Below are positions 2,622 through 25,432 of a DNA stretch of 64,000 bases, in pieces. The stretch is from Escherichia phage vB_EcoM_FJ1. Positions within the stretch are counted from its first letter, which is position 1; the number at the start of each line of letters is the position of its first letter. The stretch lies in sequence record MZ170040.1. One strand, written 5' to 3'. The notes under the pieces are model-generated. The model was not told the origin of the DNA and ran no database searches. It worked only from the letters and a program-made list of their open reading frames with translations. A program made the position numbers and the translations under genes.

Positions 2622-3470
2622 TTAATCAACTGCTATTGGATGAATAGCATTAAACTTATGAAATGCTTCTGATTTTTCTTTACGAGAAACACACATGCGA
2701 AGAACCTTTAATGGCTCGTCTTCTTCACCCAACGATTTTCGTTTTTCAATATTAGAAGTTTTCCAACGAGCTTGCTCTGGAAACTCTCTATTGATTTGCT
2801 CAAGCGCTCTATTATGTTTAGAATTACTACGAATTGAACTGCACCCGCCGGGAGCGTGTGATTTTCCAGATACAACTAGATATTTGAACAAGGCCAAATG
2901 CGGATAACCTTGATTAATTAAATTGAGAAATGCGTACATATCTTCACATAAATCAATTTTTCCATACCCAATTTGTTCTGTCGTAAGTTTTCCGAGGTCA
3001 TACCATGTATTCGTGAATCCATATGAGTTTTCACGATAATTACCCCAAGATGAAGTAATTTTAAAAATTGGTAGACGAGCATGACCGTGATAATACCCGC
3101 AATCCATAGCATCCTCAACGTATTGAATTAATTCATAGAACTGTTCACGAGTTAATTGATTAATTTTATCTACGCGCCGTTTATCGTCTCTCTTTCGTAT
3201 TGAACTCATACGAATAGTAGTATCATCATCAATCATCCAGATTCGTTGACCTGCATACATATCAGTAATTGCTTTACGAGTACCGGCAATTCCATTAACA
3301 TCATCAGGAATAGTTACAATTTTAGCTCTAGACCCATAAGCATCATAATAAGCTTTTTCTTCGTGTTCACGCACTACAATATGTGGTTCATAATCAGTCG
3401 GAAACATATCAAGGGCAGAAACTGCCCCTACACGTTGATAGCTTGGAATTACGAATTGAATCATTTCCAC
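2622..3470 (-). CDS. glycosyltransferase (DxD, GT-A-like) at the beta-gt locus; not T4 beta-glucosyltransferase
   Basis: 282-aa ORF between uvsX and gene 42 where T4 has the 351-aa beta-gt; contains WMIDDD motif; no resemblance to the T4 beta-gt sequence I recall. Confidence 0.5.
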   Translation of the reverse strand: MEMIQFVIPSYQRVGAVSALDMFPTDYEPHIVVREHEEKAYYDAYGSRAKIVTIPDDVNGIAGTRKAITDMYAGQRIWMIDDDTTIRMSSIRKRDDKRRVDKINQLTREQFYELIQYVEDAMDCGYYHGHARLPIFKITSSWGNYRENSYGFTNTWYDLGKLTTEQIGYGKIDLCEDMYAFLNLINQGYPHLALFKYLVVSGKSHAPGGCSSIRSNSKHNRALEQINREFPEQARWKTSNIEKRKSLGEEDEPLKVLRMCVSRKEKSEAFHKFNAIHPIAVD

Positions 3471-4201
3471 TCACCGTTATAATCTTTTTTCACAATATGA
3501 GTTTCGCCAGTATTCCACCAATGATCAACCAAGTAAAAATGACGAGAATATACATGAAGACTTCCAACATTCCATATAATAGAACCTGCTTTATACTGAC
3601 GAGTTGAATCGCCTGCATTCAAATCAGATACTAATTTATCTAATACGTATTTTTGCCATGCATAATCATTACGGAATCCGAAGACCACGTCATTTGAGCG
3701 CATGCTTACTACTGCATTGACTTTCTTATCACGAATCAGGTACTGTACTGTATTAGTACACATGAAATCCGACATGCCATCTTTATTGTAGTCAAACTGC
3801 ATGGATGGACGAGTATAAATCATGATACCGCGTCGAGAATCAGGATTTTGACCAAGTTCAGCTAAACACATATCATACTGGGCATAGTTATCTTCTGACC
3901 AGATGGCCCAACCATAATTCGAGTTAATTTCGCCTTTAGAAGATGCTACCTGCTGCCAAATCTTCGGCGTTTCACCTGGAATATCTTTAACAAACAGACT
4001 TTGAGACTTATACCATTCAAGTTCACGCTGAATGTATTCATCATTAAGAGCGCCAAAAATAAACGGTTCATCTGCTACAAATGATGCGCCAATAATTTCA
4101 ATAGTTTTAACACCAGTTTTATCAATTACGAAATCTTTTTCCTTTAATGCAATTCCCAAATGAAGACGGATTTCTTCAACTGTCAAAGAGTCATTAATCA
4201 T
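3461..4201 (-). CDS. 42: dCMP hydroxymethylase
   Basis: 246-aa ORF, same length and position as T4 gp42; thymidylate-synthase-like fold motifs. Confidence 0.9.
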   Translation of the reverse strand: MINDSLTVEEIRLHLGIALKEKDFVIDKTGVKTIEIIGASFVADEPFIFGALNDEYIQRELEWYKSQSLFVKDIPGETPKIWQQVASSKGEINSNYGWAIWSEDNYAQYDMCLAELGQNPDSRRGIMIYTRPSMQFDYNKDGMSDFMCTNTVQYLIRDKKVNAVVSMRSNDVVFGFRNDYAWQKYVLDKLVSDLNAGDSTRQYKAGSIIWNVGSLHVYSRHFYLVDHWWNTGETHIVKKDYNGEWK

Positions 4202-21214: not shown

Positions 21215-21685
21215 TTAATCATGTTTCCACACCCCATCGGTATTTGACCAAAGCCGCTGATTATCTGATCCTCGCCACAGCTTTTTAGTCGGAAGATTTT
21301 TCTCATACTTCCCATCAATAATAACATCAACATATTTAAGCATTTCTAGCTGTTTAATATCTTCAAATTTATATCCTGTCCACAACCAAATGCTTTTATT
21401 GGGATAAAGATTTTTTACTGTTTGAACAATGCAATGAATAACATCTCGGTTATCAGGATAGAGAGGGTCTCCTCCAGTTATAGTTAATCCTTCTATATAA
21501 TCATTATTCAAACATTCAATTAATTGCTCTAGTGTCTCTCCAGTGAATGGAATACCATTTCTAACATTCCATGTTGATTTATTATAACACCCTTCGCATT
21601 TATGCAAACAACCTGTAACGAAAAGAACGACCCTGCATCCAGGGCCATTCACAAAATCGCAAGGATAAAATCTATCATAATTCAT
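21215..21685 (-). CDS. nrdG: anaerobic ribonucleotide reductase activase (radical SAM)
   Basis: 156 aa; Cys cluster CLHKCEGCYN; overlaps the nrdD stop. Confidence 0.9.
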   Translation of the reverse strand: MNYDRFYPCDFVNGPGCRVVLFVTGCLHKCEGCYNKSTWNVRNGIPFTGETLEQLIECLNNDYIEGLTITGGDPLYPDNRDVIHCIVQTVKNLYPNKSIWLWTGYKFEDIKQLEMLKYVDVIIDGKYEKNLPTKKLWRGSDNQRLWSNTDGVWKHD

Positions 21686-23499
21686 TGGTGTTTAACCCTA
21701 TGCATGATTTCTTTATTTTTGCCGAGATTAAATCCGCGTTCGTTCGGGTTTCCAAGATAGCCGCATGTTCTTCTTATTGTGTTCATCTTTTTAGGATCAG
21801 TTTCTCCACAAATAGAACAAACAAATCCGTTTTCAGTAGGAGTCATTTCATGAGTGCTTCCACACGTAAAACATTTATCTACTGGCATGTTAACACCAAA
21901 ATAATCTAAATGTTGTGCAGCATAATCCCATACAGCCTCAAGACCTTTTAGGTTATTTTTCATATCAGGAAGTTCAACATAAGAAATGTGACCACCTGTC
22001 GCAATGAAATGATATGGTGCTTCACGAGAAATCTTTTCAAACGGAGTGATATTTTCTTCTACTGAAACATGGAAACTATTAGTGTACCAACCTTTATCAG
22101 TAACATCTTTTACGCTTCCATATTTTTCAGTATCAAGTTTACAGAAGCGATAGCAAAGGTTTTCAGCAGGAGTAGAATACAAGCTAAAAGCAAAACCGGT
22201 TCTTTCGGTCCACTGTTTAAGATGAGCATTCATCTTAGTTAAAATTTCTTGTCCAATATCACGACCGACAAGAATATTCAATTCGTGAATACCAATGTAT
22301 CCTAAGGACACTGAACTTCTACCGTTTTTAAATAACTCAATTATGTCGTCATCAGGTTTAAGACGAACCCCGAATGCACCTTCTTGGTAAAGAATAGGAG
22401 CAACAGTAGCTTTAACTCCTTTTAAGGAACTAATTCTACACATCAAAGCTTCAAAACACAAATCCATACGTTCATTAAATAGCTCAACAAATTTCTGTTC
22501 ATTGAACTGTGTTCCAATATAAGAATCTAACGCGATGCGAGGAAGATTCAGTGTTACAACACCAAGATTATTACGTCCATCAAGAATTTCATTACCAGTC
22601 GAATCTTTCCATACGCTCAAGAAACTACGGCATCCCATCGGAGAAACAGGAACAGATGAACCAGTGATAGCTTTATTGTTCTTGGCTGAAATAATATCAG
22701 GATACATCCTTTTGCTTGCGCACTCTAGAGCAAGCTGCTTAATATCATAGTTCGGATCGTCTTTGTAAAGATTAACACCTTCTTCAACGAACATAACAAG
22801 CTTAGGGAAAATAGGAGTTATCCCATCACGACCAAGACCTTTAATACGATTTTTCAGAATTGCTTTCTGAATCATTCGTTCAGTCCAGTCAGTTCCCGTA
22901 CCAAATGTAATTGTTACAAAAGGCGTTTGTCCGTTTGAACTAAAGAGAGTATTTACTTCATATTCATAAGCTTGGAATGCATCATATACATCTTTTTCTG
23001 TTTTAGATTGAGCATAATTTAACGCATCAGCGATTTGCCATTTTTCTGCATCCTCAATATGTTTTGCATAGGTGCGTTTAACATAAGGAGAAAGTACTTT
23101 ATCTACATTCGCAAAAGTCGTTCCGCCGTATTGATGGGAAGCAACCTGTGCAGTAATTTGTGCCATAATTGCAGTAGCAACACCGATTGATTTAGGAGTT
23201 TCAATCTGTGCATTACCAAGCTTAAATCCATTCTCAAGCATTCCTTTTAAATCTACTAAACAGCAATTAGTAAAAGGCAATGATATACTGTAATCTAAAT
23301 CATGAAAATGAATTAATCCAACATTATGGGCATTTACAATATGACTTGGAAGAATACGACAAGCGATATGTTTAGAAACAATACCGGCCATTAAATCTCT
23401 TTTTGTTGGAAAGACACGAGAATCTTTGTTGGCGTTTTCGGTATTTAATTCTTTATCTTTATTTGAAATAAAATTTAAAACATCTTTCTCTAAAGACAT
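21682..23499 (-). CDS. nrdD: anaerobic ribonucleotide reductase, class III (intronless)
   Basis: Uninterrupted 605-aa ORF; C-terminal zinc ribbon CFTCGSTHE...CSICG and glycyl-radical motif RRTCGYLG. Confidence 0.95.
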   Translation of the reverse strand: MSLEKDVLNFISNKDKELNTENANKDSRVFPTKRDLMAGIVSKHIACRILPSHIVNAHNVGLIHFHDLDYSISLPFTNCCLVDLKGMLENGFKLGNAQIETPKSIGVATAIMAQITAQVASHQYGGTTFANVDKVLSPYVKRTYAKHIEDAEKWQIADALNYAQSKTEKDVYDAFQAYEYEVNTLFSSNGQTPFVTITFGTGTDWTERMIQKAILKNRIKGLGRDGITPIFPKLVMFVEEGVNLYKDDPNYDIKQLALECASKRMYPDIISAKNNKAITGSSVPVSPMGCRSFLSVWKDSTGNEILDGRNNLGVVTLNLPRIALDSYIGTQFNEQKFVELFNERMDLCFEALMCRISSLKGVKATVAPILYQEGAFGVRLKPDDDIIELFKNGRSSVSLGYIGIHELNILVGRDIGQEILTKMNAHLKQWTERTGFAFSLYSTPAENLCYRFCKLDTEKYGSVKDVTDKGWYTNSFHVSVEENITPFEKISREAPYHFIATGGHISYVELPDMKNNLKGLEAVWDYAAQHLDYFGVNMPVDKCFTCGSTHEMTPTENGFVCSICGETDPKKMNTIRRTCGYLGNPNERGFNLGKNKEIMHRVKHQ

Positions 23500-24311
23500 A
23501 ATTCTAATTTATCCTTTTGAAATTCTTCGTCTAAATATGGGTTCCAACCCATTTTAAACCTTTTGATGAAATTATCAATTCTAAATTTCGGTAAGTTTAA
23601 ATCCGCAAAAATAGATGATTTACTTTTAAAATCTGGACCTAAATAATCATATAAAATTTCTGCGTATTTTAACCATAATATACAAGTACCAGATTTAATT
23701 GCGTTCGGAGTTTTCCAAGGTTTTACACCATACATCGGATTTCCACTTCCTTTATGCCTGATAGAAGATGAAATTCCAATTTTAATTTTAGCTTCCTTTG
23801 TATGCGAAAATCCACGATGCTGATTTTCTTTCCAGTATTTTTTAGAAGCTTCTGATATTTTCTTTCTGGCTAAATTAGTATGATGCTTTCCATAAAATCC
23901 ATGATTTTTGCCTTTATTACGATTTCTTTTAATCATGGTTATTGATTGCTTTTCTCTAGTTTCTTTAGAAGGAGAAATACCATATGTCGTAAATTTGCCA
24001 TCAGCATATGCTAAATTAAAATACTCTTTATTCCATACATCTTTTTCTATATTCTTTTGAAATTCAGCTTCAATGCTAGTTATTTGTTCATCTCCGACTA
24101 ATTGAAAATATAATATTTCAACTTTCGGCGTTTCTTTCAATAAGGCTTTTTGAAATTCGGAAGATGACGAAGACGAATAATAAAATTTACCATTTTTATC
24201 AATAATATTCGTTCCATCAAAAGTGCAATTGGTTTTACTTCCAATGTAATAATATGGTGGGGTTTTAGCATTAATTCTATTAATAAATGATAGTTTATAT
24301 ACTACATTCAT
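23490..24311 (-). CDS. GIY-YIG homing endonuclease-like protein (free-standing)
   Basis: 273 aa; N-terminal VVYKLSF...YYYIGSKTN (GIY...YIG spacing), NUMOD-like GKNHGFYGKHH and GSGNPMYG repeats; start overlaps the gp49 stop as ATGA. Confidence 0.7.
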   Translation of the reverse strand: MNVVYKLSFINRINAKTPPYYYIGSKTNCTFDGTNIIDKNGKFYYSSSSSSEFQKALLKETPKVEILYFQLVGDEQITSIEAEFQKNIEKDVWNKEYFNLAYADGKFTTYGISPSKETREKQSITMIKRNRNKGKNHGFYGKHHTNLARKKISEASKKYWKENQHRGFSHTKEAKIKIGISSSIRHKGSGNPMYGVKPWKTPNAIKSGTCILWLKYAEILYDYLGPDFKSKSSIFADLNLPKFRIDNFIKRFKMGWNPYLDEEFQKDKLELCL

Positions 24312-24781
24312 TTTAAACTCTTTCTAAGCTGCTTCTTAAATGAAGCTATTAATTGTGTTTTGGTGTCAGATTCATTATATTCAAATCCTCTTTGAAGCAT
24401 CTCGGCCATCATTTCCTCTTTTCCTAAACGAGAAAATTCCTTTGATTTATCTCCAACAAAGTTAGGGTGAATATTATTTTGGGTGTAATCGGATTTTAAA
24501 TAAGTAAGTAAATTTTCTAACCATTCAAGATAATCAACACCTTGTCCCTTTAAGCCAGAACGATTAAATTTGTGCTTCATTTGACCTTCTGCGGCATTGC
24601 ATAGATTACAAAGCAATCCACGTACCTTTCCTGCTTTTGGTCCATTTAATTCATGGTCATGATCGAGGTGATTAGCTTGAACATCAGGATTTAGTTCTCG
24701 TTGGCAAATTAAGCATTTACCGTTTTGCGCATCATAAAATTTCTGTTTTTCTTCTTTATATAATTTGCCAGTCAATAACAT
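24308..24781 (-). CDS. 49: endonuclease VII (Holliday junction resolvase)
   Basis: 157 aa; zinc-binding CLICQ...CNLCN; matches T4 gp49 as recalled. Confidence 0.9.
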   Translation of the reverse strand: MLLTGKLYKEEKQKFYDAQNGKCLICQRELNPDVQANHLDHDHELNGPKAGKVRGLLCNLCNAAEGQMKHKFNRSGLKGQGVDYLEWLENLLTYLKSDYTQNNIHPNFVGDKSKEFSRLGKEEMMAEMLQRGFEYNESDTKTQLIASFKKQLRKSLK

Positions 24782-24823
24782 AATAAACCCTTACCTTAAA
24801 TAGATAAGGGTATTTATTATTTT

Positions 24824-25309
24824 TCAAGTATTGTAAAACATTTGATGCAATCGCTTATATTGCCGAATCTTTTGGTCAGAAAAAGAAATTTGATTTTCAA
24901 GCCATTCAATGTATTCTGCGGCAGCTTGCATCAGGTTACCTTCATAGCCATCGTTATTTTCTTGTGCAGCTAATTTAGCTAATGCGTATGAAATACGTTC
25001 ACCTTGAAAATCGGCTTTAGGCTTCTGAACAACTTGATTAGTTCGCTCTACAACTTCTTCAATTTCGCCATTTTCTACTGATTCAGTATTCCACAAGCAC
25101 CAATACGTAATTGGCTTATCGTAGATGTTAATAATCTTTCCATCAGAAAGTTCAATTTCAATAATTCCAGTATCAGGCTCTATATCATCTTCACATTCTT
25201 TTGCAAGTTCACGAACTTTAAAGACATTACCTGCACTAAGTTCCGGCCAGTAATTACACAGCCCTGTATCAACACGATTAATTCTAAACCACTTATCTAC
25301 TGTAATCAT
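24824..25309 (-). CDS. hypothetical protein (position and size of T4 pin)
   Basis: ATG at 25309 gives 161 aa; assignment by position and size only. Confidence 0.4.
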   Translation of the reverse strand: MITVDKWFRINRVDTGLCNYWPELSAGNVFKVRELAKECEDDIEPDTGIIEIELSDGKIINIYDKPITYWCLWNTESVENGEIEEVVERTNQVVQKPKADFQGERISYALAKLAAQENNDGYEGNLMQAAAEYIEWLENQISFSDQKIRQYKRLHQMFYNT

Positions 25310-25432
25310 GTCCCATCTCCATATCAATTAAGTCATTTATCGTTGGTTCATTATATATTGTTTCTTCATCAGTGTAAACCGGTTCTTCCGGCTCTGGCTC
25401 TACAGTTTCCCATCTAGCCGCCCACCAAGGTT

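Follow-up and report, generated by a model that had tools for sequence, protein, structure and literature searches.

A SegG-like gene between gene 49 and nrdD of Escherichia phage vB_EcoM_FJ1: a probable free-standing homing-endonuclease gene and its linked nrdD segment

ORF273 and the protein it encodes

Between gene 49 and nrdD, Escherichia phage vB_EcoM_FJ1 (sequence record MZ170040.1) carries an open reading frame (ORF) of 273 codons, ORF273, which T4 lacks. This raises the question of what the ORF encodes and how it came to stand beside nrdD. We analyzed a 64,000-nucleotide (nt) stretch of T4-like phage DNA from this phage (hereafter the window). We consider it probable (about 0.75) that ORF273 belongs to the free-standing homing-endonuclease genes of the T4 Seg type, its product combining a SegG-like GIY-YIG domain with a NUMOD3 linker and a C-terminal region like that of SegG, and that it homes as proposed below. 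A literature search found no paper naming or testing the gene, and no endonuclease is given for the 49/nrdD position in a 2010 review (PMC2988022). The protein is labelled hypothetical in vB_EcoM_FJ1 and 'homing endonuclease' in many GenBank records; in Shigella phage JK42 the same protein is named 'SegG'.

ORF273 (23490-24311, minus strand; 273 amino acids, aa) is joined to its upstream neighbor by an ATGA common to the gp49 stop and its own start, in agreement with the first-pass annotation of the window, which had it coupled to the gp49 stop. At the other end, its stop lies 7 nt past the nrdD ATG, an overlap of 10 nt. The same annotation had described nrdD (21682-23499, minus strand) as one uninterrupted ORF of 605 codons and had seen no mobC-like gene beyond it. 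Both descriptions hold. All coordinates given there are exact, Pfam NRDD matches nrdD over its full length (E 7e-171) together with Gly_radical, and nothing occupies the T4 intron position (about 22961). The position held by mobC in T4 and by segH in PP01 is empty as well, because the start of nrdG (21215-21685, minus strand) overlaps the nrdD stop (21682). The G+C content is 25-33% across ORF273 and 35-39% in the flanks; 273 open codons in DNA of such composition are far beyond chance, by our own estimate at about 1e-10.

In a translated search against 50,697 phage records, the best characterized relative to emerge was T4 SegG, which is 40% identical to the protein across aa 1-126 (E 2e-17); the SP18-type SegG aligns with ORF273 over 97% of the length. 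PHROG 7504 'homing endonuclease' also matches (E 1e-33). The N-terminal catalytic domain (aa 1-105; 23997-24311, minus strand) contains the GIY and YIG motifs as V-V-Y5 and Y22-I23-G24, on strands 2-8 and 21-26 of the AlphaFold2 (AF2) model. We examined conservation in two alignments, one of ORF273 with 25 homologues and one of 19 Seg-like homologues alone. In the former, Y5, Y22 and G24 recur in at least 90% of the 26 sequences (5 of them with Pfam PF01541); E81 and N99, the counterparts of the catalytic Glu (E75) and the structural Asn (N90) of I-TevI, are invariant in both. All five residues are in register with I-TevI Y6, Y17, G19, E75 and N90. The fold match to the AF2 model was to GIY-YIG, with its three-stranded sheet and flanking helices. 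A profile of the wider family, whose alignment held canonical GIY-YIG proteins, matched the I-TevI catalytic domain (E 3e-5); once those proteins were taken out, the profile kept only its NUMOD3 match, to the I-TevI DNA-binding domain 1I3J (E 3e-4). A phmmer search of the PDB sequences with the single protein gave nothing relevant, and TIGR01453 (NCBIfam) scored E 0.0011, below its cut-off.

Behind the catalytic domain lies a NUMOD3 DNA-binding motif (aa 130-153; 23853-23924, minus strand; Pfam PF07460, 29.6 bits at a cut-off of 20.4). The C-terminal region (aa ~200-273; 23493-23714, minus strand) is presumed to be the specificity domain. Its motif FKxGWNPxLDxEF recurs in T4 SegG (..FNSGWIPLEDPEY..), as alignments with SegG and with P0002, a homologue from the same site, show; AF2 confidence is low over this region, and the fold there is not established. 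The first-pass label of a GIY-YIG/NUMOD-type enzyme therefore stands for NUMOD on a Pfam match and for GIY-YIG on SegG homology, conserved residues and fold, the Pfam GIY-YIG models having failed to match. On these three grounds we conclude that the N-terminal domain is a SegG/I-TevII-type variant of GIY-YIG.

A paralogue of equal length (P0003, 273 aa) was seen on ENA contig NODE_202 (ERZ13617658, 4001-4822), between gp5 and a 5.1-like gene of another phage, near the T4 segC position. Its catalytic half is 56% identical to that of ORF273 and its C-terminal half is unrelated. The catalytic module is thus in use at other sites as well, and an exchange of specificity domains in this Seg branch is suggested.

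Comparison with known systems placed ORF273 closest to SegG, a free-standing GIY-YIG endonuclease encoded between T4 genes 59 and 32, with gene 32 as its target (PMC2988022). The two proteins share the pattern MNxVYxxxFxxRxxNKTPPYYYIGSK...YxSS...E...YFN and a C-terminal GWxPxxDxE. The SegG gene is a promoterless cassette in the same orientation as its neighbors, directly upstream of its target gene (PMC2988022); ORF273, likewise oriented with its neighbors and directly upstream of its presumed target, appears to be another. In contrast to SegG, ORF273 occupies the 49/nrdD site with nrdD as its presumed target, is 63 aa longer through the NUMOD3-containing linker, and brings with it a long substitute segment of the target gene that is strongly diverged. 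I-TevII, encoded by the T4 nrdD intron, targets the same gene and shares the YIGxK...YxSSS variant with ORF273; unlike ORF273, it is encoded within an intron, which lies about 540 nt into nrdD, and the window lacks it. Identity with I-TevII was rejected (pairwise E 1.1).

SegH, from phages U5 and PP01, is likewise free-standing, has NUMOD3 motifs and flanks nrdD, where it replaces mobC between nrdG and nrdD; the PP01 record names that gene SegH homing endonuclease, and in RB6 the gene at this position is named 'segD'. The first-pass annotation had pointed to SegH and Hef as published examples. The place of ORF273 next to nrdD and its NUMOD3 motif would suit an orthologue of SegH (or of Hef), but PP01 SegH is encoded beyond the opposite end of nrdD and matches ORF273 at 25% identity (E 0.003) in the NUMOD3 region only, with no meaningful similarity elsewhere. 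SegH also belongs to another catalytic subfamily (SegE_GIY-YIG match E 0.0024, below the Pfam cut-off). Furthermore, the two genes can co-occur: fPS-2 has ORF273 and, at the position of SegH, a gene annotated 'homing endonuclease', and in FL18 a truncated ORF273 is followed by a gene nearly identical to PP01 SegH. Hef, to judge from the title of Sandegren et al. (2005) as cited in PMC2988022, replaces mobE between nrdA and nrdB. Identity with SegH (or Hef) was thus rejected by sequence comparison, and we hold it to be highly improbable.

Insertion site, distribution and the foreign nrdD segment

In T4, T2, RB6, PP01 and RB69, nothing separates gene 49 from nrdD: the gp49 stop and the nrdD ATG share the same ATGA. 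The window departs from these non-carrier phages right after the ATGA. Because gene 49 and nrdD overlap directly in non-carriers and the upstream junction lies just past the shared ATGA, ORF273 is an insertion. RB14 matches the locus only as two pieces (~80% coverage), with no endonuclease annotated there, so the gene is missing from T4, T2, RB6, RB14, PP01 and RB69 and is not a constant feature of T-even phages at this position.

The population analysis covered the GenBank phage collection; a scan of IMG/VR gave only 2 loci. Of about 685 records with a locus at least 90% identical, 49 contain ORF273 DNA, at 96-100% identity. Carriers occur in both Tequatrovirus (Lutter, fPS-2, fPS-90, G8 and others) and Mosigvirus, and the Mosigvirus status of ST0, FL18 and OLB35 was confirmed by taxonomy lines. 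ORF273 is therefore intergenic, outside any intron and sporadic among close relatives, as Seg-type genes are. The first-pass annotation had presented ORF273 and the intron-free nrdD as one arrangement. The two are not connected, as fPS-2, G8, Manna, F26 and Lv5cm carry ORF273 together with an nrdD intron and I-TevII, a coexistence read directly in fPS-2 and suggested by insert lengths in the others. Some intron-bearing carriers also hold a SegH-like gene. Given that ORF273 coexists with the intron and I-TevII elsewhere, the intron-free state of nrdD in the window is incidental.

The insertion is accompanied by a foreign 5' segment of nrdD. Codons 1-75 (226 nt; 23274-23499, minus strand) have 63% DNA identity to T2, with 28 of 75 aa changed, compared with 96.4% DNA identity and 2 changes in 530 aa for codons 76-605. 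Across the 4.4-kb locus the window is 93-100% identical to T2 outside this patch and 60-76% identical inside 23274-23499. The patch has a sharp boundary, which coincides with the conserved stretch CCWTTTACTAATTGCTG. When used as a query, the patch was found in 49 records, and 48 of these also hold ORF273. At the protein level, only one record of the phage collection, presumably OLB35, has an NrdD N-terminus 65-95% identical to the patch type. Because no other intermediate NrdD N-terminus is present there, the source lineage of the patch is unsampled in that collection.

The gene and its patch travelled together between genera. In ST0, the cassette of endonuclease gene and patch is 97-100% identical to the window. 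About 100 nt upstream of the cassette, identity to the window falls to 70% in ST0 gene 49, whose sequence there is that of RB69. Since the cassette is nearly identical while gene 49 upstream follows RB69, a defined cassette has moved between the two genera. Every cross-genus pair compared showed 93-98% identity over the final ~100 nt of gene 49. In the RefSeq record of ST0 (NC_041990.1), the intact 273-aa ORF at 3084-3905 is unannotated, which leaves 808 nt between nrdD and gene 49 without a gene.

Decay products of the insertion were also found. In OLB35 (MH992122.1, an UNVERIFIED record; 1980-2100), the patch is kept and the endonuclease gene is lost. Its nrdD opens with the first seven ORF273 codons (MNVVYKL), in frame with patch-type nrdD at about codon 9, and the sequence reads as an in-frame deletion that kept the patch. 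FL18 (PP400780.1, 2497-3988) has lost almost the whole of nrdD: residues 1-201 of ORF273 run straight into the final ~17 residues of NrdD, and the fusion is followed at once by a gene for a SegH-like protein of 276 aa and then by nrdG. FL18 is in its own right a natural T4-like phage without anaerobic ribonucleotide reductase, its deletion being flanked by two endonuclease genes. Finally, a Logan metagenomic contig (L013; SRR27536177, 2188-3180) comes from a far more distant T4-like phage whose gp49 is 65% and whose NrdD core is 71% identical. At the same site it has a frameshift-split homologue of ORF273, roughly 58-60% identical over the whole length. Its gene 49 is separated from the endonuclease homologue by an ORF of 55 codons with homology to the NrdD N-terminus, and a complete nrdD lies downstream. 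The 55-codon ORF has the look of a leftover from the resident 5' end after an illegitimate insertion, or it may be an assembly artefact. The series of OLB35, FL18 and L013 fits the usual homing-endonuclease cycle of invasion, decay and loss.

Homing and its alternatives

The course of events that we consider most likely is as follows. By sitting exactly at the ATGA junction, ORF273 would take over the start-codon context of nrdD together with a probable middle promoter, and nrdD would begin anew at the ATG that lies 7 nt ahead of the endonuclease stop. When a carrier and a non-carrier infect the same cell, the enzyme would cut the non-carrier genome within the 5' end of nrdD or beside it. The break would then be repaired by copying the donor, and the endonuclease gene and the 226-nt foreign nrdD segment would be transferred together. 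The patch is so diverged from the ordinary allele that a carrier would probably be immune to its own enzyme, and the same divergence would prevent homologous recombination from separating the patch from the gene. The arrangement that the first-pass annotation had recognized as that of intronless homing, a free-standing endonuclease gene beside nrdD, is present in the window; homing itself we infer from comparative evidence.

Such behavior would match the published biology of SegG, SegF and MobE (PMC2988022, PMC2790892). In intronless homing, or localized marker exclusion, by MobE at nrdB and by SegF at gene 56, the adjacent conserved gene of a non-carrier is cut or nicked at its 5' part and co-conversion follows (PMC2790892, PMC2988022), as is proposed for ORF273. 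MobE differs in being an HNH enzyme, and the behavior of ORF273 is read from comparative genomics only.

A motif resembling a MotA-type middle promoter, TGCTTCA-N13-TATAAT, lies at 24374-24399 (minus strand), in the 3' part of gene 49 and 63 nt upstream of the ORF273 ATG. The pattern TGCTTYA-N11-13-TANNNT has 14 matches in the window versus 2.7 expected, mostly on the minus strand. The motif at 24374-24399 is invariant in phages without ORF273, where it precedes nrdD; as a promoter it is putative. ORF273 appears to be a promoterless cassette, placed between nrdD and the signals of nrdD itself. The genes segC, segF, segG and several mob genes are likewise promoterless cassettes (PMC2988022). 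Upstream of the nrdD ATG there is only an AAGGA, at a distance. RNA folds at both start codons have z-scores of -2.2 and -2.4, modestly better than shuffled controls, and a hairpin over the ORF273 AUG is possible on such modelling. The late-promoter sequence TATAAATA does not occur within 15 kb of the locus. Scans for sigma-70-like promoters and terminators did not rise above background and were not relied on.

Several observations weigh against an active homing endonuclease. First, the aligned columns of ORF273 have no Arg or Lys at the position of the catalytic Arg of I-TevI (R27), and a 24-residue insert (aa 27-50) takes the place of the R27 helix. Second, neither Pfam GIY-YIG model (PF01541, PF19835) matched the isolated N-terminal domain at E up to 10. 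Third, Foldseek found nothing in the PDB, the profile built from Seg-like sequences alone does not find the I-TevI catalytic domain by sequence (only a NUMOD3 match is left), and the hhalign pairing of the ORF273 E81/N99 segment with I-TevI residues 56-94 has weak, partial support. In addition, the ratio of nonsynonymous to synonymous polymorphism (pN/pS) among five ORF273 copies, 0.05-0.47, rests on few substitutions, and the patch could be hitch-hiking donor DNA, not an immunity determinant.

Part of this evidence can be judged by controls. T4 SegG has no Pfam match at all, and I-TevII (E 1.3 versus the GIY-YIG model) and SegH fall below the cut-offs; since the models miss this subfamily, the Pfam non-match is uninformative. 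SegG and I-TevII are listed as active GIY-YIG enzymes (PMC2988022, Table 1). Because they have the same arrangement at the R27 position, the absent counterpart is a subfamily variant and no proof of inactivity; the nearly invariant K26 and R12 are candidates for the role of R27. The pN/pS values, for their part, indicate that the reading frame is under purifying selection.

The same observations bear on the idea that the protein no longer cleaves and survives as a passenger or DNA-binding protein, held in place by translational coupling to nrdD and by the failure to recombine away from the patch. The missing Arg and Pfam match would agree with this, as would the 10-nt overlap of the nrdD ATG with the end of ORF273, with only the distant AAGGA upstream, and the deletions and frameshift in some lineages. 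However, SegG and I-TevII share the variant motif and are listed as active (PMC2988022), E81 and N99 are invariant, and pN/pS stays below 0.5. Near-identical copies in two genera amid diverged flanks indicate recent mobility, and OLB35 shows that nrdD can be restored without ORF273. Conserved catalytic residues, purifying selection and recent spread across genera make a catalytically dead passenger less likely than an active enzyme, and we consider it improbable.

The place of the cut is a separate matter. The cut may lie within nrdD, roughly at nt 165-226, and the gene and the 226-nt patch may form one obligate, self-immunizing unit, with a replacement N-terminal segment from an unsampled lineage and with nrdD translation coupled to the endonuclease gene. 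We put this forward tentatively, as possible rather than probable. Alternatively, the same mobile endonuclease might recognize a site spanning the gene 49/nrdD junction. The insertion would then destroy the site, as with intron endonucleases, and the patch would be donor DNA from the first transfer, kept because 63% identity blocks recombination. The insertion exactly at the ATGA junction and the presence of the patch as one indivisible block in all 48 carriers are in line with a junction site, and the last ~100 nt of gene 49, so similar across genera, would make a good recognition sequence. Set against this, the characterized free-standing T4 endonucleases usually cut inside the conserved neighboring gene (PMC2988022; PMC2790892), and the 55-codon nrdD remnant upstream of the endonuclease gene in L013 suggests a break further inside nrdD. 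We regard a junction site as doubtful. A homing endonuclease of the SegG type, moved by co-conversion with its nrdD patch, is the reading that we prefer.

Neighboring genes and significance

On the minus strand of the window, the order of genes is pin, gene 49, ORF273, nrdD, nrdG, a 55.8-like ORF and nrdH. Gene 49 (24308-24781, minus strand) encodes endonuclease VII and matches Pfam Endonuclease_7 and its dimerisation domain. Its upstream neighbor is pin (24824-25327, minus strand). Between the two is a terminator-like hairpin (24787-24811, minus strand), at the same relative position as the terminator annotated in fPS-2. Elsewhere in the window, the matches to the MotA-box pattern provide a quick map of likely middle promoters.

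ORF273 adds to a well-understood class of elements. The linkage to the patch and the decay series illustrate that class rather than surprise, and the working of such elements is understood as before. ORF273 is a third endonuclease gene at the nrdD locus of T4-like phages, besides I-TevII and the MobC/SegH position, and nrdD is thus attacked from both ends and from the middle. To our knowledge, no structure or target rules are known for the SegG branch. If the cut site of ORF273 were mapped, a new specificity would be added to that branch. If the gene and the patch are indeed an obligate unit, every homing event would rewrite part of NrdD (28 of 75 residues), and a nearby nrdD intron could be carried in trans. 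The natural series at this site, namely carriers in two genera, a loss that kept the patch, a deletion of nrdD and a frameshifted homologue beside a remnant, is a compact example of the life cycle of a homing endonuclease. It also shows such elements moving gene segments between phage genera.

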